In this document: piece after piece, positions 8,406 through 33,542 of the stretch | How positions within the stretch are numbered: the first letter of the stretch is position 1 | Layout of the letters: each line of letters begins with the position of its first letter | From: Methylacidiphilum sp. | GTDB lineage: Bacteria > Verrucomicrobiota > Verrucomicrobiia > CAIQCK01 | Direction: 5' to 3' | DNA: 33,542 bases | Assembly (NCBI GenBank): GCA_020718125.1 | Contig: DYDC01000003.1 | Span: forward strand, 1 to 33,542 | Program-made: the position numbers and the translations under genes | The notes under the pieces: generated by a model | What the model was told of the DNA's origin: nothing | The model's input: only the letters and a program-made list of their open reading frames with translations | Database searches by the model: none

Positions 8406-9412
8406 GGGTGTCTTCCTCCAGATGTGGTGTTGCGGACATTGATGATCTGCGGCCCGCTCATGGCGACCGACGCGGCGCCGGGCACGATTGAAGCAGGCGG
8501 AGCGAAATAGGTGACGGGGATGTTCAAGCCGACGGACAGGTCGCACGTGGCGATGATCCGGCCCGCGCGCGAGGGATGCGTGAGGACGATCTTCAGCCGC
8601 TTGAGTTGCGCGGCAAGGTTCTCCGCCGCGAAAGTGACCAGGCCACCCTGCCGCATGACCATCACCAGGAAGCCATCCACCGCCACGTCCACGCGGTCGA
8701 AGTCGAGCAACGGCGCGAACTCCGCACCCTCGCAAAGGTGGACCAGGTCGAGCGCTTTCTGCACCTGCTCGCTCTCGATGCGCCGGCCGGGCTTGATCAG
8801 CTTTGCGTCCACACCGGTCAACAGCGGCAGCCGCACTGCCGGCTTGCCGCCCTCGCCGGTCGCGCCAAACACGCCAACCGGCTTCATCACCACCGCCGTC
8901 GCGTCAATCAGGCAGGCCGTCGGCGGCGCCGTCACGCGCCCCGCCGCGTCGCGGACGGTCTTCGTATAGACCTGCGCGATGGGCACGCGCTCGGAGATGA
9001 TAATGTGAAGCTTGTCGGGCAGCAGTCGCCGGATTTCCGCGCGGCGGATGACGGGGTGCGACTCCAGCGCGGCGCGCACGCCGGGCAGGTCCACCGCGAA
9101 AAGGTTCTGGCCCTCGCGCACGCCGGCCAGATCGACAATCTGCGGGTGCGGCAGCGTGCCGTCGGTCTCGATCTTGATCTCGTTGATGTTGTAGGCCGCG
9201 TTCTCAGTGAGCGACTTCGAGACAAAGAAGGTGAACGCATGATAGAGGCCGAACACCACCAGCCCGGCGGCCATCAGCGTCGCCAGCCAGAGCATCCCGC
9301 GGCCGACCTGCGCCTGCACGCGCTGCGAGCAGCGGACCTTCACGTCGAGCTTGCAGGGGTCGCGCCGCTTGCGGCGGTTTTCACGCGAGTTCTCGTTGAT
9401 CCAGTTGAACAT
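8402..9412 (-). CDS. ftsQ: Cell division protein FtsQ/DivIB
   Basis: Basic N-tail, one TM segment, POTRA region (GQNLFAVDL..IRRLLPDKLHIIISERVPIA). Lies between ddl and ftsA; ATG 9412 overlaps the ddl stop. Confidence 0.92.
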   Translation of the reverse strand: MFNWINENSRENRRKRRDPCKLDVKVRCSQRVQAQVGRGMLWLATLMAAGLVVFGLYHAFTFFVSKSLTENAAYNINEIKIETDGTLPHPQIVDLAGVREGQNLFAVDLPGVRAALESHPVIRRAEIRRLLPDKLHIIISERVPIAQVYTKTVRDAAGRVTAPPTACLIDATAVVMKPVGVFGATGEGGKPAVRLPLLTGVDAKLIKPGRRIESEQVQKALDLVHLCEGAEFAPLLDFDRVDVAVDGFLVMVMRQGGLVTFAAENLAAQLKRLKIVLTHPSRAGRIIATCDLSVGLNIPVTYFAPPASIVPGAASVAMSGPQIINVRNTTSGGRHP

Positions 9413-10323
9413 CAGAGTTTCCCTCCGCGCCTTGCCAGCGCCATCGTCACGATCCGCGAGCACAATTCCTCCAACCCAATGCCGACGGCCGCCGCGGCCT
9501 TCGGCAGCAGGCTCGTCTCGGTCATGCCGGGCAGCGTGTTGTTCTCCAGCACGAACGGCCGGTTGTCGCTGCGCCGCAGCATCACGTCCACGCGCGAATA
9601 ATCCCGGCAGCCCGCCGCGCGGAACGCCGCCAGCGCAACGCGCTGGACCTCCGCCGCGACCGGATCCGGCAGGTTCGCCGGCACGTCATACTCGCTCGCG
9701 CCTTTCGTGTATTTGTTCTGGTAGTCGTAAAAGCCCGCCTTCACGCGGACCTCGACCACCGGGAGCGCCCGGTCGCCGAGAATGCCGACGGTCAGCTCGC
9801 GGCCATCTATGAATTCCTCGACCACCACATGGTCGTCATAGCGGAACGCCTCGTCGAGCGCCGCCGCCATCGCGCCGGCCTCGCGCACCAACGCCACGCC
9901 GACGCTGGAACCCTGCTTCGCAGGCTTCACCACGACCGGCGGGGGCAGCGTCACGCGCCGCGCGCCATTCGCCGTGACGACCTCGTAGCGCGCGCTCGGC
10001 ACGCCGGCCGCCGCGAAAATCTCCTTCGAACGGACCTTGTCGAAGCAATCATAGCTGGCCTGCGCGCCGCAGCCCGTGTAGGCCACGCCGCGTTGCTCCA
10101 GGATGCGCTGGAGCTGGCCGTCCTCGCCGAACGTGCCGTGCAGTGCCAGGAACGCCACCGCCGTGTCCGGCTCCAGCACAAAGCCAGGCCCTTGCACGCC
10201 CACGGCATAGACAATCCAGCCCGCGCGGCGCAGCACCGCCGAGCACGCCGCGCCGGTGCGCAGCGACACGTCGCGCTCCGCGCTCGGGCCGCCCGTCATG
10301 ACCGCTACTTTTTCCTTCTGCAT
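9412..10323 (-). CDS. ddl: D-alanine--D-alanine ligase
   Basis: GGPSAERDVSL, LHGTFGEDG, VKPAKQGSSVG, YDYQNKY, ENNTLPGMT. Confidence 0.97.
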   Translation of the reverse strand: MQKEKVAVMTGGPSAERDVSLRTGAACSAVLRRAGWIVYAVGVQGPGFVLEPDTAVAFLALHGTFGEDGQLQRILEQRGVAYTGCGAQASYDCFDKVRSKEIFAAAGVPSARYEVVTANGARRVTLPPPVVVKPAKQGSSVGVALVREAGAMAAALDEAFRYDDHVVVEEFIDGRELTVGILGDRALPVVEVRVKAGFYDYQNKYTKGASEYDVPANLPDPVAAEVQRVALAAFRAAGCRDYSRVDVMLRRSDNRPFVLENNTLPGMTETSLLPKAAAAVGIGLEELCSRIVTMALARRGGKL

Positions 10324-13300
10324 CAGTCTCCGAGGATGATGACTTCGGTTTCCAACTCGATCCCGCGTTCTTCGCGGGCGCGCTTCTTCACAAACTCGAT
10401 CAGCTTCAACACGTCCTCGGCGGTCGCGCCGCCGTCATTGACGATGAAATTGCCGTGGACCTCGCTGATGCGCGCCTTGCCGATGATCTTGCCCTTGAGG
10501 CCCAGTTCATCAATCAGCTTGCCCGCCGGAATCTCCTTCGGGTTCTTGAATACGCAACCCGCGCTCGATTCGTGTGGCTGGTTGTGCCAGCGCTTCTCCT
10601 GAAAAGTCTTCAGCCGGCTTTCGATGACTTCCGGCGCGGCGGGCGTCGCCTTGAACACCGCGCCCAGCGCGACGTGGTCGCGGAACAACGGGCAGCCGCG
10701 ATATTCAAAGCGGATCTCGCCCGCGGACTTCTCCTCGACGTTGCCCGCGTAGTCCATGAACCGCACGCGCTCGACGACCTCGAACGTCCACTGCCCCATC
10801 GCGCCCGCGTTCATCCGCAACGCGCCGCCAACCGAGCCGGGGATGCCCTCCAGAAACTCCAGCCCGGTAAGATGCGCCCGTTTCGCGGCCATCACCACAT
10901 CGCGCAGCTTCGCGCCCGCGCCGGCAGCAATGCGGTCGCCGCTGACCTCGATCTTCGACAGGAACGGCCGCGTGAGCCGGATGACGACGCCTTTGACGCC
11001 GTGGTCACGCGCCAGCAGGTTCGAGCCGCGGCCGATGATGAAGAACGGCAGTCGCTCGGCGTGGCAGTAGCGCAGCACGCGGCCGAGGTCGTCCTCGCCG
11101 GCCGGCTCGCACCAGAACTGCGCGGTGCCGCCCACTTGGAACGTCGTCTTTTTCGCCATCGGTTCGTTGCGCGACAGCGCCGTCTCCGGCGCGAGCATCG
11201 CGCGCAGTTCCGCGTGAATCTGATCTTCGGTCTTCATCGGCTGGCCCGCCTTGTCGCCGACCTGACCCGCGCGGACCCGCCGCGCGACTTCGTCGGCCAC
11301 CTTCGTAATGTCGCCCGCGCCGAGCACGGCAATGATGTCGCCCGGCTGCGCCGCCGCCAGCAGCCGCCCGGCAACACGGTCGAGGTCCGGCTCGAATTCC
11401 ACGCCGGCATGGCCGCTGGCTTTGACGGCCTCGAAAATAGTCCGCCCGCTGACGCCCTCGATGGCCGGCTCGCTCGCCGCATAGACCCCGGTCAACACCA
11501 GCTTGTCCGCGCCCGCGAACGCGCGGCCGAAGCCGGACGCGAGCAGCTTGGTCCGCGTGTAGCGGTGCGGTTGGAAGGCGGCGACAATCCGCTTGCGGCC
11601 GACGGCCCGCAGCGCCTCCAGCGTGGCGCGCAGCTCCGTCGGATGGTGCGCGTAGTCGTCCACGACGAGGTAGTTGGCGTCCTCGAACTTCACATCGAGC
11701 CGGCGGTCGGCCCCGCGGAACGTCGCGAGCGCCGCGGCGATCCGGTCGAACTTCAAACCGAGCGTCAACCCGACCGCGACGGCGGCTGTGGCGTCGGAGA
11801 CGTTGTGTTTGCCGGGAATCGCCAGCATGATGTCGCCGAGTTGCCTGCCGTTGTGGCGGACGGCGAAGCGAACGCCGAACTTCTCCGTCCGCACGTCCGT
11901 GGCGCGGCAGGACGCGTCCGGCGAGAAGCCGAACGAGACGGCGCGCGGATGCGCGGAGCAGAGCTTCGCGGCGTTGGCGTCGTCGGCGCAGTAGAAGACA
12001 TGGTCGTGCGTGTTCTCAATGAACTCGCCGAAGGCGTCGAGGATGGCCGGCAGGTCGCGGTAGTAGTCGAGGTGCTCCTCCTCGATGTTGAGCACGACAC
12101 CGTGGGTCGGGGCGTATTCCACCAACGTGCCGTCGCTCTCGTCGCACTCGGCAACGAAGAACTCGCCGGCGCCGTCGCCGGCATTGCCGCCGATGGAGGC
12201 GACGTAGCCGCCGACGCTGAACGACGGATCGTGGCCGCCCGCCTTGAGGACGCGGGCGATCATCGCGGTGGTGGTGGTCTTGCCGTGCGTGCCCGCGACA
12301 CAAATGGAGGCCGGCGCTTTCTTGCCGGGCAGGAACGGCGTCTGCATCACGGCGGAAAGCATCCGCGCGCGGCGCACGAGCGGCACGCCGGCCGCCTTGG
12401 CCGCGCGTAACTCAGGGTTGTCCTTCTGGATCGCGCTCGAATGGATGACGAGGTCCGGCTTCCCGATGTTGGCCGCGTCGTGGCCGGTGAAGACTGTGCC
12501 GCCGCGGGCGCGCAGCGCGTCGAGTTCCTTGCCGGCGCACAGGTCGGAGCCGGTGACGCGATGGCCGCGGGCGAGGAGCAGCCGGGCGATGCCGCTCATG
12601 CCGCAACCCGCGATGCCGACGAAGTGGACCGCGCAGGCGCTCTCGCCGAGCAGGCGGATGATGTCGGCGATTTCGATCTCGCGACGGGCGATGCCCGGCT
12701 CGGCCACGCCAGCGACCTGCGCAAGCAGCGTCGCGATGGCCGCCGCGGCATCGGGCCGGCGCAGGGCGGCCATCTTCTCGGCCATGTCGCGGCGCGTGGC
12801 GCTGACAAGCATTTCCTCCACGGCGCGGGCGAGCATCTCACCGGAGGTTTCGGCCTGCGGCATGACGCGGGCGCCGCCGTTGCGGGCGGCGAACTGGGCG
12901 TTGAAAAGCTGGTGATTGTCGGCAGCGTCCGGGAACGGGACGAGGATGGCCGGCAGGCCGAACCACGCCAGTTCGGCAAGGCTCGCCGCGCCGGCGCGAG
13001 CGACGGCCAGCGTCGCGGCGCTGTAGGCGAGTTCCATCTCCTTCTGGAAGGGACGGACGACGGCCTTGAAGCCGGTGGTTTCCCACGCGGCGCGAACTCG
13101 CTCGAAATCAGCCTCGCCGGTGAGGTGGATGAACTGAAGCTGGCGCGCCAGATGTTTCAAGTGCGGCAGCGCGGCCAGCATGAGGTCGTTGAGGCCGCGA
13201 GCGCCCTGGCTGCCGCCAACGACCAGCACGGTCTGGCGGCGCGTCTCAAGGCCAAGCTGCCAGCGGGCGTCGCCGGCGGGGCGTTTGCGGAGCGAGGCGC

Positions 13301-13790
13301 GGACGGGCGTGCCGGCATTGACGACGCAACGGCCGGGCAGACGGGCGGCGCATTCGTCCATGCCGACGGCGACGGCGGCGACCCAGCGCGCGAGAAGGCG
13401 CGTGGCGCGGCCGGGAATGGCGTTGGAGTCGTGCAGGACGACCGGGACGCGGCGACGGCGCGCGGCAATGACCGGCGGGGCGGAGGTGAAGCCGCCCATG
13501 CCGAGAACCACGTCTGGCTCGAAGTCGTCGAAGAGCTGCCCGCAGAGCCGTGTGGCGCGGAGTTGTTCGGCCAGAAACGTGATGATGCGTGGCGATGTCC
13601 ACGGCGGCAGGCCGATGCCGGGAATGGCGCGGACCTCGATGGCGGCGGCGAGTTGGAAGGCGTGGCGGTCAATCTCCTTTTCGGAGACGAGCAGCAGGAC
13701 GCGATGGCCGCGGAGACGCAGCGCCTCCGCCACCGCCAGCCCCGGGAAGAGGTGGCCGCCCGTGCCGCCGCATGCGATCGCGACGTTCAT
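10323..13790 (-). CDS. murG-murC-murB: Trifunctional fusion MurG-MurC-MurB (1155 aa)
   Basis: One uninterrupted ORF. MurG: GGTGGH, GMGGF, GGSQGA, RAGA, HQLFNA. MurC: HFVGIAGCGMSG, GTHGKTTT, ECDESDG, DDYAHHPTE, FQPHRYTRT. MurB: GRGSNLL, GIPGSVGGALRMNAGA, SAGCVFKNP, HGNFIVN, LETEV. Confidence 0.95.
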   Translation of the reverse strand: MNVAIACGGTGGHLFPGLAVAEALRLRGHRVLLLVSEKEIDRHAFQLAAAIEVRAIPGIGLPPWTSPRIITFLAEQLRATRLCGQLFDDFEPDVVLGMGGFTSAPPVIAARRRRVPVVLHDSNAIPGRATRLLARWVAAVAVGMDECAARLPGRCVVNAGTPVRASLRKRPAGDARWQLGLETRRQTVLVVGGSQGARGLNDLMLAALPHLKHLARQLQFIHLTGEADFERVRAAWETTGFKAVVRPFQKEMELAYSAATLAVARAGAASLAELAWFGLPAILVPFPDAADNHQLFNAQFAARNGGARVMPQAETSGEMLARAVEEMLVSATRRDMAEKMAALRRPDAAAAIATLLAQVAGVAEPGIARREIEIADIIRLLGESACAVHFVGIAGCGMSGIARLLLARGHRVTGSDLCAGKELDALRARGGTVFTGHDAANIGKPDLVIHSSAIQKDNPELRAAKAAGVPLVRRARMLSAVMQTPFLPGKKAPASICVAGTHGKTTTTAMIARVLKAGGHDPSFSVGGYVASIGGNAGDGAGEFFVAECDESDGTLVEYAPTHGVVLNIEEEHLDYYRDLPAILDAFGEFIENTHDHVFYCADDANAAKLCSAHPRAVSFGFSPDASCRATDVRTEKFGVRFAVRHNGRQLGDIMLAIPGKHNVSDATAAVAVGLTLGLKFDRIAAALATFRGADRRLDVKFEDANYLVVDDYAHHPTELRATLEALRAVGRKRIVAAFQPHRYTRTKLLASGFGRAFAGADKLVLTGVYAASEPAIEGVSGRTIFEAVKASGHAGVEFEPDLDRVAGRLLAAAQPGDIIAVLGAGDITKVADEVARRVRAGQVGDKAGQPMKTEDQIHAELRAMLAPETALSRNEPMAKKTTFQVGGTAQFWCEPAGEDDLGRVLRYCHAERLPFFIIGRGSNLLARDHGVKGVVIRLTRPFLSKIEVSGDRIAAGAGAKLRDVVMAAKRAHLTGLEFLEGIPGSVGGALRMNAGAMGQWTFEVVERVRFMDYAGNVEEKSAGEIRFEYRGCPLFRDHVALGAVFKATPAAPEVIESRLKTFQEKRWHNQPHESSAGCVFKNPKEIPAGKLIDELGLKGKIIGKARISEVHGNFIVNDGGATAEDVLKLIEFVKKRAREERGIELETEVIILGD

Positions 13791-13809
13791 CGTCAAAGTT
13801 TTCCTGTCA

Positions 13810-15000
13810 TCAAACCGCCGTGGCCCGCCGCGCGAATGGACCGGCCGGCACATGCTCCGGCGCGCCCGCGTGTCGGGCGACGCTGAGGAGCAGGCCGACG
13901 CAGGTCAGCATGACGCAGAGATTGGAGCCGCCGTAGCTGATGAACGGCAACGGCAAGCCCTTGTTGGGCATCATCGAGGTCACAACCGCCAGGTTGATCA
14001 AGGCTTGAAACCCGATGAGCGAGACGATGCCCATGCCGAGCAGACAACCGTAGAGTTCCCGCGCACGCGTGCTGACATACACGCCGACGGCAATCAAGAC
14101 GACGAACGCGACCAGCAGCGCGGCCATGCCGACGAGGCCCAGTTCCTCGCCAATGATCGGCGCAATGAAGTCACTGGAGGCATACGGCAGGTAATGCTCC
14201 TTGGTGCGGCTCTGGCCCAGGCCGAGGCCCCACAGGCCGCCGGTGCCGAAGGCGAGCTGGGCCTGCCATTGCTGGAGACCGGTGCCGAGCTTGTTGTGTT
14301 CGAGGTCGAGGAACTCGACGATGCGGCGATAGCGCACGGGGTCGTGGAAGAGATACCAGCCCAGCATCGCCGCGCCGCCCGTGAAGCTCGGGAACAACAC
14401 CCGCCATCGCACGCCACCGAGGAACATGACACAGAAGCCGGCCATCGCGATGAGCACCGAGGTGCCCACGTCGGTCTCGCACAGGACGGGGCCGACAATC
14501 GCGCCCACAAGGAACAGCGGCACGAGGATGCCGCGTTTCCATTCATCCCATTTCTGCCGGAACAGGAGGAGTTTCGTCAGCCGGACTTCCTGCACATCGC
14601 GCTGCCAGCGGTCCAAGTAGTGCGCCAGCATCAGGATGACGGCCAGCTTGCCCAGTTCGGAAGGTTGGAGCGTGATCGAGCCGAATTGGAGCCAGCGGCG
14701 CGAGCCATTGATCATCCTGCCAATGCCGGGCACCAGGACGACCAGACAGAGGGCAAACGCGGCGAGCCAGACCAGCCAGATGAGTTTCCGCCAGCGGTTG
14801 TAGTCCACCGCCGCGGTGACCAGCATCGCGACGAGGCCGATGCCGATCCATGCGAGTTGGCGGTTGAGGAACCAGAGTGGGTTGTGGTCGTATTGAGCGG
14901 AGCGGATGGCGTAGGGGTAACTGGCGCTGTAGAGCATCACCAGACCGAAGCTCAGCAGGAACAAGACACAGACAAGTATCGCGACGACGCTTTTCTTCAA
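13810..15000 (-). CDS. ftsW: Peptidoglycan polymerase FtsW (SEDS family)
   Basis: Multi-TM protein with NGSRRW, QPSELGK, LPYASSDFI, KGLPLPFISYGGS. TTG start. Confidence 0.96.
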   Translation of the reverse strand: MKKSVVAILVCVLFLLSFGLVMLYSASYPYAIRSAQYDHNPLWFLNRQLAWIGIGLVAMLVTAAVDYNRWRKLIWLVWLAAFALCLVVLVPGIGRMINGSRRWLQFGSITLQPSELGKLAVILMLAHYLDRWQRDVQEVRLTKLLLFRQKWDEWKRGILVPLFLVGAIVGPVLCETDVGTSVLIAMAGFCVMFLGGVRWRVLFPSFTGGAAMLGWYLFHDPVRYRRIVEFLDLEHNKLGTGLQQWQAQLAFGTGGLWGLGLGQSRTKEHYLPYASSDFIAPIIGEELGLVGMAALLVAFVVLIAVGVYVSTRARELYGCLLGMGIVSLIGFQALINLAVVTSMMPNKGLPLPFISYGGSNLCVMLTCVGLLLSVARHAGAPEHVPAGPFARRATAV

Positions 15001-15091
15001 CGGACCTCAGTTTGCATGTTGTCGGTGACCGCCCCAACCGCCGATCTGGTCTGGGGAAGCCCTCCGCGGTTCAATGTTCAAACATCAGGCT

Positions 15092-15907
15092 CTACGGATT
15101 GCCGGGCACGGGGCCAGGGGGCGGCGTGCTTGGCGCACTGGGCGGCGGCTGCAACGCCGGCGGCGTGGCCAGTCCCGGCGCGGCGCCTTCCGGAGCGCCG
15201 GATGTCGGGACGGTCGGCGCCGGAACAGCTTCCGGCATCGGGATGCCACCGGTCGCAGGAGCCGCACCTGCCGCGGCGGGCGCGGCAGCGCCACCGGGCA
15301 CGTTCAGCTTCTGGCCGATCTGCAATTTCTTCGGGTCAAGCCCCGGATTCGCATCCATCAGGGCTTGCGGCTTCACGCTGAGTTTCTTCGCGATCTTGTC
15401 CGGCGTGTCGCCGGTCGCGACGACATACTGGCCATCGGGGTTCATGGCGCCAGCTCCGGCTGGCGACGCGGCCGCCTTCTTCGGGGCCGTCTTTTTCTTC
15501 ACGGCGGGCTTCGGCGCGGCGAGGGCCTTCTGGCCGCTCTCCTGCGGCGTGGGAATCTTCAGCTTCTGGCCGACCCGGATGACGTCGCCGGAGAGGTGAT
15601 TGGCGTTTTTGATCGCGGTGACGGTGGTTCCGTATTTGTGCGCGATGCCTGAGAGCGTTTCGCCCTTGGCGACACCGTGGGTCGTTTCCTTCAGTGCCAC
15701 CGGCAACGCCGGCTTGGTCTCCACCGGCGGCAGGACGGGCGGAGGCGGGGGCGCCGTCTCCGGCAACGGGGCTATGGGCGTCGCGCCGGGTGGCGGGCCG
15801 GCAGCCACCTTGGACTTCGGTTTGCAGCTTTCAAACACCATGAAGCTGCCAATCACCGCCACGTGCAATCCGGCAATCAGGCCGATCTTCCACAACTTCG
15901 AGTTCAT
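15092..15907 (-). CDS. Membrane-anchored protein with two LysM domains and Pro/Ala-rich linkers
   Basis: N-terminal hydrophobic segment; LysM1 HGVAKGETLSGIA..GQKLKIP; LysM2 YVVATGDTPDKIA..GQKLNVP. GGAG RBS precedes ATG 15907. Confidence 0.92.
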   Translation of the reverse strand: MNSKLWKIGLIAGLHVAVIGSFMVFESCKPKSKVAAGPPPGATPIAPLPETAPPPPPVLPPVETKPALPVALKETTHGVAKGETLSGIAHKYGTTVTAIKNANHLSGDVIRVGQKLKIPTPQESGQKALAAPKPAVKKKTAPKKAAASPAGAGAMNPDGQYVVATGDTPDKIAKKLSVKPQALMDANPGLDPKKLQIGQKLNVPGGAAAPAAAGAAPATGGIPMPEAVPAPTVPTSGAPEGAAPGLATPPALQPPPSAPSTPPPGPVPGNP

Positions 15908-15971
15908 GTTCGTTCTCCGTTCGTCTGCGTCTTGTTCCTGGTTCCTGTCGATTGTTGACTCGCGAAATTTG

Positions 15972-17321
15972 TCAGCCGGACGCGAGCGCCCGGACGATCT
16001 GTTTGAACCGCTCTCCGCGGTCTTCATAGTCGCGAAACATATCAAAGCTAGAGCACGCTGGCGAGAGCAATACCACGTCACCAGGGGCCGCCGCCCGCCG
16101 GGCCTGCTCCACCGCGTCCTGCAACGAGCCGGCCTTCACGCAACGCACCGCCGACGACCACGCGGCGGCCAGCTTGTCGCGCGTTTCGCCGATCAACACC
16201 GCCAGCTTCACCTTCCGCCGCAGCGTGTCGTTCAGCTCCGCAAAATCAAAACCCTTGTCCTTGCCGCCGGCGATCAACACCACCGCCTCGCGGAAACCCG
16301 CCAGCGCTTTCTCGACCGCGTCCACGTTGGTGGCCTTCGAGTCGTTCACATAGCGCACGCCGCCGATCTCCGCCACCAGTTCACAGCGGTGCGGCAGCGG
16401 CCGGCAATCCGCAATCGCCGCCCGCGCCGACGCCAGCGGCACACCAAAGGCCATCGCGGTTGCCAGCGCGGCCATGATGTTCTCCGCGTTATGCGGCCCG
16501 CGCAACCGCGTCGCCGTCATGTCGAGCAACTCGCCTTCGCCTTCGCCTGCGATCTTCGTGCCGTCCAACCAAAACGCGCAGCCCGGCCGATGGCTCCGCG
16601 CGCTGAACCACACCTGCCGCGGCCCATCCGGCCCGCGCAGCGCGGCAAACCTTCCGCGGCAATCCTCGTTGACCACCGCCCAGTCGTCCGCCCGCTGGTT
16701 GGCGAAGATCCGCTCCTTCGCCGCCGCATACTCGCGCAGCGACGGATAACGGTCGAGATGGTCCGGCGTCACGTTGAGCATCACGCTCACCCGCGGCCGG
16801 AACTGTTCGATGCGTTCCAATTGGAAAGAACTGACTTCGAGCACCGCCACGTCGAGCGGCTCGCCACGCGCCAGCAACTCGCAAAACGCCAGCCCGATGT
16901 TGCCCGCCGCTGTCGTCCGCTTGCCGCCAGCCTGCAACACCCGCGCGCACAACCCGGTGGTCGTCGTCTTCCCGTTGGTGCCCGTGACGGCCACGACCGG
17001 GCAGGCGCAAAAGCGGAAACCGAGCTCCAACTCGCTGATGATCGGAACGCGGGCCGCCTCCAACTCGCGAACAAGCGTGTTTTCCGGTGGAATTCCCGGA
17101 CTTAACACCACCAAGTCCGCTGCCAGCGGGGCCGGTCTTGTCACGCCCAACCGCACATCCACGCCCCGCTCGCGTAGCGACGACGCCACCGTTTGTAGGG
17201 CATCGCCGTCCGCATTGTCAACGGCGATGACGCGCGCGCCGCGGGCCGCCAGCAGCCTTGCCGCCGCCGCGCCGCTCCGGCCCAGGCCAAGCACCAACGC
17301 CGTTTGACCGTTCATATTCAT
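15972..17321 (-). CDS. murD: UDP-MurNAc-L-Ala--D-glutamate ligase
   Basis: GLGRSG, TGTNGKTTT, EVSSFQLE, DHLDRY, NDSKATN, SPACSSFDMF. Confidence 0.98.
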   Translation of the reverse strand: MNMNGQTALVLGLGRSGAAAARLLAARGARVIAVDNADGDALQTVASSLRERGVDVRLGVTRPAPLAADLVVLSPGIPPENTLVRELEAARVPIISELELGFRFCACPVVAVTGTNGKTTTTGLCARVLQAGGKRTTAAGNIGLAFCELLARGEPLDVAVLEVSSFQLERIEQFRPRVSVMLNVTPDHLDRYPSLREYAAAKERIFANQRADDWAVVNEDCRGRFAALRGPDGPRQVWFSARSHRPGCAFWLDGTKIAGEGEGELLDMTATRLRGPHNAENIMAALATAMAFGVPLASARAAIADCRPLPHRCELVAEIGGVRYVNDSKATNVDAVEKALAGFREAVVLIAGGKDKGFDFAELNDTLRRKVKLAVLIGETRDKLAAAWSSAVRCVKAGSLQDAVEQARRAAAPGDVVLLSPACSSFDMFRDYEDRGERFKQIVRALASG

Positions 17322-30658: not shown

Positions 30659-31990
30659 AAGGTCAGCCGCATCCCGCAGAAGAAAACGCTCACCATCAAG
30701 CCGATCCGCAACCGCCAGACGCCCGCGCTGGAATACCGCGAGCCGTTCACGTTCGACAGCTACGACGCCGACTGGGCCGTCCGTAACAAGTCCAACGGTC
30801 ACGCCACACGGCTCGATGAGAAGCGCGGCGGCAAGATCATCTGCAAGGGCTTTGTCCACACGTTCTATCCGCTGGTGCCGCCGGAGAAGTATTTCGCGGC
30901 GCACCCGGAGTATTTCTCCGAGATCACAGGCAAGCGGACGCACGACCACGCGCAGCTCCGCCTGACCTATCCCGACGTGGTGGACATCGTCACGCAGCGC
31001 GTGCTGGAGCAACTCAAGGGCGCACCGCCGCGGACCATCGTCTCCGCGTCGCAGAACGACTGGCACGGCCAGTGCCCGTGCGCAAAATGCAAGGCCATCG
31101 AGGACGAGGAGGGCAGCCCGTCGGCGCCGCTGCTGCGGTTCGTCAACCATGTCGCCGATCGCGTCGAGCGCGCGCGGCCGGACGCGGCGATTGACACGAC
31201 GGCCCGCCAATACACGCGCAAGCCGCCGCGCCTCGTGAAGCCGCGGCCGAACGTCATCGTGCGGCTGTGCAGCATCGAGTGTTCGTTCTCGCATCCGCTC
31301 GGCGGCGCTGGGCAGAACCGCAAGTTCTGTCGAGGACATCGAGGGCTGGTCGAAGATATGCCAGCGGCTTTACACCTGGGACTACGTCACCGACTTCGCG
31401 CATTACGTCCAGCCGCACCCAAACCCGCGGGTGCTCCAGCCCAACATCCAGTGTTTCATCGCCAACGGCGTGAAGGGCATCTTCGAGCAGGGCAGTTACC
31501 AGTCGCCCGGCGGCGAACTGCGGGAACTGCGCTCGTGGCCGCTCGCGAAACCGCTCTGGAACCCGCGCGCCAACGTCAACGCGTTGATGAACGCCTTTCT
31601 CGCCGGCTACCACGGCCCGGCCGCGCCGTTCATCCGCCGCTACATGGACCTAATGCACGACGAGGTCACGAGGACGAAGCACGAGCTGAAATACTACCCG
31701 CCGACGACCGCGCCGTTCCTGTCGCAACCGGTCATCGCGAAGGCCGACGCGCTGTTTGCCTCGGCGGAGAAGACTGTCGCGAAAGACGCCGCGCTGCTGC
31801 ATCGCGTGAAGGCGGCCCGGCTGCCGGTCCATTACGTGATGATGCAGCGCGAGAAGGCGTGGAAGCGCAGCGGCGCAAAGTGGCAGCCGTCGCTGTCGGG
31901 CCACGCGCTGCGCGAACGGTTCTTCGAGATCGCCGCAGCGGAGAAGATGACGACAATCAACGAAGGCCGCTCAATGGACGACTTCCGCAC
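30659..31990 (+). pseudogene. DUF4838-family (glycoside hydrolase-like) protein, 5'-truncated and frameshifted
   Basis: VSRIP..PALEYRE, VHTF..VPPEKYFAAHPEYF, SQNDW..CPC..C, VRLCSIECSFSHP, WDY, GIFEQG. No start codon or N-terminal domain; an extra T at ~31328 shifts the frame. Confidence 0.8.
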
Positions 31991-32024
31991 CGCCACGCGG
32001 CTCCCTGACCGGCGCGCGCCGTTG

Positions 32025-33373
32025 CCGCCGTCGCGCAAGCTCCGCATCGGCTGTGTCGGCATTGGCGGCCAGGGCGACGGCGTGACCGCCGAACTCGCCA
32101 CGTTCGAGAATGTCGAGATCGCCGCGCTCTGCGACGTGGACGACAAATACGCCGCGCGCAACATCAAGAAGTATCCCGGCCGGCCGCTCTACAAGGATTA
32201 CCGCGTGATGCTCGATAAGGAGAAGGGCCTCGATGCGGTGATGGTTGGCACGCCGGACCATTGGCACGCGCCGATCTCGATCGCGGCGATGCAGCTCGGC
32301 AAGCACGTCTATTGTGAGAAGCCGCTGGCGCACTCTGTCGAGGAGGCGCGGTTGATGGCGCGCGTGGCGCGCGAGACGGGCGTGGTGACGCAGATGGGCA
32401 ACCAAGGCCACGCCGGCGAGGGCCTCCGGCTGACGAAGGAGTGGATTGACGCGGGCGCAATCGGCAGGATCAGCGAGGTCCACGTCTGGTCGGACCGGCC
32501 GGGCAAGTTCTGGCAGACGCAGGGCCGCCTCCGGCCGACCGACACGCCGCCGGTGCCGGCGGGCCTCGACTGGAACCTCTGGCTCGGCCCGGCGAAGGAG
32601 CGCCCGTATCATCCCGATTACTGTCCCCGCCAGTGGCGCGGGTGGATTGACTTCGGCTGCGGCGCGCTCGGCGACATAGGTGCAGGGATGGCTGGCTGGT
32701 TACGCGGCCAGGGTGGATTGACTTCGGCTGCGGCGCGCTCGGCGACATGGCGGTGCACAATGCCGACCCGGCGTTCTACGCGCTCGACCTCGGCGCGCCG
32801 GACTGGGCCGAGGCGGAGTCCTCGCCGACGAATCCCGATTCATTCCCGCTCTGGAGCATCATCACCTGCCATTTCCCCGCCAAGGGCAACCGCGGCCCGG
32901 TGAAGATGGTGTGGCATGACGGCGGCAAGCAGCCGCCACGCCCGCCGGGACTTGAAGCCGATGCCAACCTCGAAAGCAATGGCATCTACTTTGTCGGCGA
33001 CAAGGGCGCCCTCATGGCCGGCGGTTGGTCGGGCACGCCTCGCATCGTTCCGGAGACGAAGATGCAAGCGTTCAAGCGCCCGGAGAAGACCATCCCCCGC
33101 AGCGTCGGCCATCGCCGCGAATGGGTCGAAGCCTGCCTCGCGGGAAAGCCGCGGGACGCGAAGTCCGGCTTCTGGTATTCCGCGCCGTTCACCGAGGCAT
33201 TGCTGGTCGGCCTGCTGCCGGTGCTGACCGGCAAACGCATCCAGCGGGACGCCGCCGCGATGAAAGCAGTCAACGCGCCCGAAGCCGAGCCGTTCATCCG
33301 CAAAGCCTACCGCCGCGGCTTCGAACTGCCCGCCGTGGCGACTCGGCGGCGCATCCGCTGGTTCGGAAGCTGA
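32025..33373 (+). pseudogene. Gfo/Idh/MocA oxidoreductase disrupted by a 71-bp insertion
   Basis: PPSRKLRIGCVGIGGQG, TPDHWH, HVYCEKPL, TQMGNQ, WNLWLGP, WRGWIDFGCGALGD|MAVH. Removing 71 bp rejoins ORFs 31431-32903 and 32747-33373 in frame. The gene has no start of its own. Confidence 0.88.
32640..32748. repeat. Exact 38-bp direct repeat flanking a 33-bp unique insert
   Basis: GGGTGGATTGACTTCGGCTGCGGCGCGCTCGGCGACAT at 32640-32677 and 32711-32748. Insert AGGTGCAGGGATGGCTGGCTGGTTACGCGGCCA at 32678-32710. Confidence 0.97.
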
Positions 33374-33492
33374 GGGGCGCACGAACGACCGATATCTTCG
33401 GCGACAACGACGCGCACAAGAGATCAGCGATTCGATTTGGATCACAAAGAATAGGGAACCTCCGGTAACTATTCGCCAGATGAAATTCGTTG

Positions 33493-33542
33493 ATAGGGGT
33501 AGGGATGAAGGATTGAACTTCACCCCTCCCTCCGAACCGGAC
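33493..33542 (-). mobile_element. Group II intron 3' end (distal domain V and domain VI), continues beyond window
   Basis: Minus strand reads GTCCGGTTCGGAGGGAGGGG-TGAAG..CTTCA-TCCCTACCCCTAT: 3' half of domain V, a domain VI stem with candidate bulged A, and terminal AY. Confidence 0.8.

Follow-up and report, generated by a model that had tools for sequence, protein, structure and literature searches.

How a short piece of DNA with no recognizable source came to interrupt an otherwise intact bacterial gene, duplicating part of that gene on either side of itself, is the question raised by the locus described here. The window that we analysed is the entire 33,542-nt contig C68 of a MAG comprising 2.84 Mb in 378 contigs (85% complete, 64% G+C). 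Near its end, on the plus strand at 32022..33373, lies a gene for an oxidoreductase of the Gfo/Idh/MocA family (Pfam matches PF01408 and PF19051), which is split by an insertion of 71 nt. The gene contains two identical 38-mers on the plus strand, at 32640-32677 (copy 1) and 32711-32748 (copy 2), with a start-to-start distance of 71 nt; between them, at 32678..32710 and with no strand assigned, are 33 nt of inserted sequence. The original prediction, made from the letters of the window, was that this arrangement is a fossil of off-target CRISPR adaptation that acted as an insertional mutagen. Reads, the integrases of the genome, a period of 71-72 nt in related arrays and an empty site in relatives all support that view, and we consider it likely that the 71-nt unit was left behind by a single off-target (ectopic) spacer integration by Cas1-Cas2.

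The predicted structure proved accurate in its details. Both copies are exact over 38 nt, and the 33-nt candidate spacer, which had been noted as having no second occurrence in the window, occurs only once in the whole 2.84-Mb MAG, where its best other match is a 14-mer. Sequence comparison revealed no relation of the insert to either flank. Because 71 is not divisible by three, the reading frame is lost after GALGD and the shifted frame terminates at 32903, while the original frame is picked up again in copy 2 and continues to the stop codon at 33371-33373. Excision of the 71 bp had been expected to restore the gene, and this is borne out by the frame as well as by alignment with homologues, in that both halves are colinear with intact proteins of 453-460 aa and overlap only in the duplicated 12 residues, GWIDFGCGALGD, that are encoded by the target. 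Neither half has an additional stop or frame shift, and this undecayed state fits a recent single event. The start of the oxidoreductase is not fixed in position, as the gene lacks the signal-like N-terminal segment seen in its homologues; no stop separates its frame from the upstream DUF4838 gene, and DNA homology to G001, a genome of the same genus, starts near 32021. The DUF4838 gene (window 30875-31650) is itself read in two frames, with Pfam positions 69-219 in 30875-31400 and positions 253-325 in 31431-31650, and the split of its Pfam match therefore places a frameshift near 31330-31430. The second of these frames continues stop-free into the oxidoreductase.

An exact repeat in a fragmented MAG could have been created by assembly or scaffolding, and given that clear scaffolding artefacts occur in this MAG, such a reading had to be excluded for the unit. 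Exact overlaps of 29-47 nt flank 14 of its 23 N runs, exact tandem duplications are numerous, and the unit lies ~800 nt from the contig end. We aligned Logan contigs and unitigs (k=31) of four runs to positions 31500-33542. Run X1, which holds 0.93 of the words and is the likely source run, provides one flanking unitig up to 32669 and the other from 32719 onwards, because a k=31 graph must break at a repeat of 38 nt. In the same run, a 93-nt unitig (32648-32740, 0 mismatches) consists of the insert with 30 nt of the repeat on each side, and its depth is 238.8, the flanks being at 251 and 252.9. Run X3, which belongs to another study and has low cover, contains a 101-nt unitig (32648-32748, depth 5.0, 0 mismatches) whose length equals 71+30, i.e., a closed cycle of 71 words. 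Spanning sequence, with the insert and both junctions, is thus present in read-derived unitigs of two studies. In run X4, which contains a ~92%-identical relative, a 1361-nt contig skips exactly 71 nt; run X2 is without cover at 32604-32879 and is hence uninformative on the unit.

With a repeat of 38 nt against a k-1 of 30, the insert cannot be joined to its flanks by the unitigs alone; the connection is instead provided by the equal depth, the original assembly and other public contigs with the broken ORF. This ORF of 490 aa, which includes the insert and the shifted tail, is found on at least four public contigs, including those of 33,549 and 33,810 nt, and exists there in two variants that are one residue apart. 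With read unitigs (k=31) that contain both junctions, in X1 at the depth of the genome as a whole and also in X3, and with two sequence variants of the broken ORF in public contigs, we regard an artefact as very improbable. For the unit at 32640-32748 that reading is largely refuted, and the insertion is real, inherited DNA. Read-level support covers this unit alone among the ~nine units described below.

The relatives show the state of the gene before the insertion. In G001 (88-93% identity) and the matching family members, BLAST homology to the locus falls into two pieces with an overlap of exactly 38 nt; in the nucleotide alignment of relatives the target is single copy and without insert; and all other oxidoreductase homologues, at ≤85% identity, are intact. 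The empty site in G001 and other relatives identifies the 71-nt event as an insertion in the lineage of the MAG, and the insertion appears to be near fixation in the population; the depth ratio of 238.8/252 in X1 hints at a proportion of empty-site cells of up to ~5%.

Several other features of the assembly were recorded on the way. Across the 14 N runs with flanking overlaps (on C25, C26, C51, C60, C79, C169, C196, C268, C277, C304, C312, and C370), the sum of N and overlap takes the constant values 65 (5 cases), 155 (8) and 47 (1). As the contig ends truly overlap, these N runs look like closable scaffolder gaps. The exact tandem duplications, with periods of 65, 101, 143-147, and 226-228, may be assembly artefacts. 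At window positions 33432-33542 the word depth in X1 reaches ~9,000-17,000, as compared with ~250 elsewhere, with many loose ends, and these last 110 nt are probably a very high-copy repeat that ended contig C68.

The MAG contains the enzymes that an ectopic integration would call for. Contig C164 encodes Csd1/Cas8c, Cas7, Cas4, Cas1, and the start of Cas2, which together represent type I-C, and contig C156 encodes a C2c1/Cas12b-like protein, a Cas4-Cas1 fusion, and Cas2, which represent type V-B. Of the cas1 gene presupposed by the original prediction there are therefore two (on C164, and on C156 as the Cas4-Cas1 fusion), together with two clear cas2 matches (C164, C156); a third cas2 match, on C372, is weak and under the family cut-off (19.5 bits, E 0.003). 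Contig C5 (L051:1-804, minus strand) carries codons 1-268 of a Cas9-like gene that is cut by the contig start, and homologues in the class are frames of 1054-1154 aa. Types I-C and V-B and the Cas9-like gene amount to three CRISPR types in one small genome with no assembled array; k-mer periodicity, known I-C motifs and likeness to the type II repeat of relatives all failed to reveal a CRISPR array in the MAG.

As the MAG is without an assembled array, we turned to other genomes of the class and measured the arrays that adjoin the closest homologues there, and the repeat and spacer lengths given here are consequently proxies from genomes whose Cas1 is 54-78% identical, not values from arrays of the MAG itself. 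All four loci beside the closest Cas4-Cas1 homologues (54-69% identity) bear V-B arrays with 36-nt repeats, and the period is 71-72 in 84 of 126 units. Beside the closest Cas1 homologues of type I-C (70-78% identity), the repeats are 37 nt long and 74 of 122 units have a period of 71-72. The spacers of both types are mostly 34-36 nt. The 71 bp of the C68 unit, which the original prediction had proposed to set beside the native repeat-plus-spacer length, therefore agrees with the period next to the closest Cas1 homologues. The arrays of Cas9 homologues (65% identity over the fragment) have a different period, combining 36-nt repeats with 30-nt spacers to give 66 nt in 114 of 115 units. A scan of genome contigs for closer I-C relatives returned none above 81% identity, and the contig at that value has no array.

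How the 71 nt are divided between target and insert depends on what is counted as duplication, in that the observed 38+33 equals 37+34 or 36+35. The target is exact over 38 nt, as compared with the 36-nt (V-B) and 37-nt (I-C) repeats of relatives. In the arrays of these relatives one extra base matches in 75 of 338 adjacent repeat pairs and two extra bases match in 38, so that an excess identity of 1-2 nt is seen in 113/338 pairs, and an excess of ≥2 nt in 56/338. The true target duplication is probably 36-37 nt, to which 1-2 nt of chance identity were added, and the insert would then be 34-35 nt. On the minus strand the target begins AT-GTCGCC. The I-C repeats of the four closest array-bearing homologues all begin GTCGCC or ATCGCC and end GGATTGAAAC, and the earlier remark that GTCGC resembles the start of a type I-C repeat is thus correct for these relatives ((G/A)TCGCC in 4/4). 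The GTCGCC register implies a 36-nt duplication, as against the 37-nt I-C repeat, and over its whole length the target matches the I-C or V-B repeats of relatives at best at 16 of 37 positions (p = 0.14).

Based on these lengths, we propose the following course of events. The acting integrase, which would have been that of the I-C module (C164) or of the V-B module with Cas4-Cas1/Cas2 (C156), was loaded, on this view, with a prespacer of ~34-35 nt that was presumably of foreign origin. Rather than attacking a leader-repeat junction, it would have made two staggered strand transfers ~36-37 nt apart within coding sequence, and gap filling would have duplicated the 36-37 nt between the points of attack, leaving a target-spacer-target unit at the native repeat+spacer period. 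The insertion would thereby have shifted the frame of the oxidoreductase and then have risen to near fixation. The pseudo-repeats give no reason to expect crRNA processing, and we therefore view the unit as a mutational scar and not as a working array. The original prediction had also seen in it a potential array seed. That suggestion found no support, since every unit in the genome has a single insert and behaviour of this kind is not visible.

The source of the insert was sought in several collections. The 33 nt have no exact match, and thus no protospacer, in metagenome or viral contig collections, and BLAST searches against phages and plasmids returned chance-level matches only (best E 0.4). 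The protospacer with adjacent PAM that had been anticipated from such searches was therefore not recovered from metagenome, viral, phage, or plasmid collections. BLAST against ~0.9 Mb of fetched loci, including the arrays of relatives, gave chance matches only, and the inserts of four sister units (see below) had no exact match in viral contigs. Derivation from nearby sequence by template switching had been named as an alternative source; neither a local nor a genomic origin of the insert was found, and a search across the whole MAG revealed no genomic template for any of the inserts.

The genome was scanned for exact direct repeats of ≥26 nt at a spacing of 30-200, with tandem repeats and N gaps excluded. 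The scan yielded 28 entries in 2.84 Mb, 12 of which have a spacing of 66-73 (66 three times, 68 twice, 71 once, 72 four times, and 73 twice), and the remaining entries are mostly low-complexity or multi-copy repeats. The idea that further duplications of 30-40 bp around short inserts might be present was well founded: nine to ten units like that at 32640-32748 exist in the MAG, with periods of 66 (3), 68 (1-2), 71 (1), and 72 (4). Those with a period of 66 are on C103 (L015:1994-2095, 36+30), C180 (L013:1541-1646, 40+26), and C268 (L014:1103-1208, 40+26), the last of which lengthens a sulfatase by 22 residues without a change of frame. The period of 68 is represented by a unit on C188 (L020:1514-1613, 32+36) in the C-terminus of a Flp-type pilin gene, and the period of 71 by the C68 unit (38+33). 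Four units have a period of 72, namely those on C1 (L019:1593-1700, 36+36), which is an in-frame insertion of 24 residues, C218 (L018:34-143, 38+34), C60 (L017:1891-2001, 39+33), and C273 (L016:1024-1137, 42+30). The sister units are mostly in frame, and the inserts, which range from 26 to 36 nt, show no relation to one another, to other sequence of the genome, or to the DNA that flanks them. With their periods on 66 and 71-72, the units track the native periods of the CRISPR types that the genome carries. A second entry with a period of 68, on C166, is a diverged tandem repeat and was rejected as a unit. A scan for decayed units (30/34 matches) produced one extra candidate only, at C131:4249 with a period of 66. 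A comparison of background rates in other genomes was discarded, the fetched loci being cas neighbourhoods full of real arrays.

For some of the sister units, relatives also inform on the state without insertion. G001 has an empty site for the C268 and C103 units; no homologue of the C1 or C273 sites was found among the relatives searched, and the test for C180 is ambiguous because the region has diverged. The 24-residue insertion of C1 is also present in P0122, a 99%-identical protein on a contig of another public assembly, and is missing from the next relatives (≤88% identity). Similarly, the 22-residue insertion of C268 is present in P0242, which is on a contig of another assembly, and is missing from P0243, P0245, and P0247. 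The 36-nt target of C103 (minus strand) matches the type II repeat of relatives in register at 19 of 36 positions, including 8 of the first 10, a degree of likeness with p = 0.001 among 3,000 random genome windows, or ~0.03 when corrected for 30 tests.

The same structures might have arisen independently of CRISPR, by duplication with filler. A staggered double-strand break, with its overhangs filled in and its ends joined with filler DNA, would leave a direct repeat around an insert, as would a template switch in which ~33 nt were copied from elsewhere before synthesis was re-primed at the start of the 38-mer. Taken jointly, these two routes seem to us unlikely, although the edges of the units speak for them. 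The exact blocks exceed 36 nt by 0, 0, 2, 2, 3, 4, 4, and 6 nt while the period (66 or 72) is kept, and at up to 42 nt they extend beyond a plausible repeat, with identity at the junctions above chance. An excess of ≥4 nt is found in 2/338 adjacent pairs of real arrays, which is so rare that integration plus chance alone fails for three units. In addition, three of nine inserts (C68, C180, C268) start with a 5-6-mer that is shared with the native downstream start at an offset of 2-3 nt. Overlong blocks and short matches at the insert start are typical of microhomology-using repair, and the negative protospacer searches are also in keeping with it. However, break repair and template switching are without a ruler, yet the periods are 66 and 71-72, which are native to the three CRISPR types present, and no further process with a period ruler of this kind is known to us. 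Moreover, the genome offers no template for any insert, the inserts have no overall likeness to their flanks, and the C103 target is in register with the type II repeat. When the inserts were compared with the flanks as possible noisy copies of them, none of 18 comparisons reached p < 0.05, and that notion was rejected.

A function for the intervening DNA is far less probable still. The unit would then be a translational-bypass cassette, with take-off in copy 1 and landing in copy 2, and a full-length protein would be made. It is true that skipping the 71 nt between the identical copies restores the frame, and that both gene halves are undecayed, but no stop codon lies right behind copy 1, and the sister units, with their unrelated inserts, are mostly in frame. 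Such a cassette is, in our estimation, extremely improbable. Two established classes of element were considered and rejected. A canonical CRISPR array does not match a unit with two copies only, in coding sequence that is single copy in orthologues. Nor does an IS, transposon, or MITE match a unique insert with a 38-nt duplication and sister inserts that are mutually unrelated.

Ectopic integration by Cas1-Cas2 is thus our preferred reading of the C68 unit, which would be a natural example of a process already known. A more comprehensive proposal, which we offer tentatively and with rather more doubt than confidence, is that ~nine ectopic integrations have been fixed in this genome by two or three co-resident adaptation modules, with the period of 66 attributable to type II and that of 71-72 to types I-C and V-B. 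Several would have become in-frame protein insertions of 22 or 24 residues, and the second strand transfer at non-repeat targets would have been aided by a small number of matching bases shared by prespacer end and target. Identity of this sort would account for duplications that are 3-6 nt overlong at a constant period. One may speculate that these bases help to finish integration at a non-repeat site, or that a repair step is involved. If the proposal is true, CRISPR adaptation would act in nature as an insertional mutagen whose effect can be measured, and proteins would gain insertions from it.

A counterpart of such events is found in the "neo-CRISPR" units of E. coli, which were reportedly obtained in a laboratory setting with over-expressed type I-E Cas1-Cas2. 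Their formation by off-target integration (Nivala, Shipman, and Church, 2018) is cited in PMC7054753, PMC6698737, PMC11788318, and bioRxiv 10.1101/148544, and the last of these speaks of "circumstantial evidence" for natural cases in two other species. Like the E. coli units, that of C68 has a spacer-length insert between duplicated, repeat-length, non-CRISPR DNA, away from arrays. Unlike them, it appears near-fixed in a wild Verrucomicrobia-like population, is gene-internal, and is accompanied by sister events; the genome would involve type I-C or V-B, and apparently type II at other loci, instead of I-E. Ectopic spacer acquisition has been described inside the arrays of Streptococcus thermophilus and S. 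mutans (PMC7999890, PMC5338259, and PMC8265633). It resembles the C68 event in that integration occurs away from the leader-proximal repeat, but it uses genuine array repeats, whereas the C68 target is coding sequence without an array.

Off-target sites of Pyrococcus furiosus Cas1-Cas2 (type I/III) have been mapped in vitro on plasmids (PMC6698737). The features that invite comparison with that work are the GTCGCC start in C68 and the in-register target of C103, and whereas the P. furiosus evidence given there is from in vitro work, that for C68 is from an inherited event in vivo. Off-target acquisition is also one proposed origin of isolated arrays (PMC13142298, citing Shmakov et al., 2020). 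By that account, isolated or orphan arrays share their proposed origin with the C68 unit, but they are multi-unit with repeat-like repeats, whereas the units of the MAG are single and their "repeats" are gene sequence. Transposons and casposons duplicate their target by staggered strand transfer and gap repair too; their target duplications are much shorter, and the element carries its own ends and genes. The MAG units differ from them in having a duplication of 36-38 nt and mutually unrelated inserts of 26-36 nt.

The literature that we searched, which omits most subscription papers, contained no account of repeated natural events inside genes with links to several CRISPR types. Off-target integration has been invoked as a cost of CRISPR adaptation and as one source of isolated arrays. 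To this, the C68 locus adds a read-supported and apparently near-fixed gene disruption in an uncultured bacterium, with sister periods that track the CRISPR types carried. A search of genomes for exact repeat-length duplications around spacer-length inserts at the native period makes it possible to measure how much mutation adaptation costs and which site rules the three types of integrase follow.

Two loci from the scan have peculiarities of their own. The entries with a period of 73, at C16:149-260 and C173:5070-5168, are an exact 39-nt pair and represent one locus on two contigs; the sequence around the pair bears a hairpin, and segments of that sequence are found on seven or more further contigs. 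The pair may be a small array or one more ectopic unit within a dispersed repeat, and given its place in a dispersed hairpin-bearing repeat, it was not taken as a native array. The C268 unit is near the active-site motif of the sulfatase. This sulfatase (L014:600-1370) is without 93 residues that are present in all close homologues, a deletion that is shared by P0242, and its DNA is 94-96% identical to that of another genus of the family, as compared with ~70-74% for the oxidoreductase.
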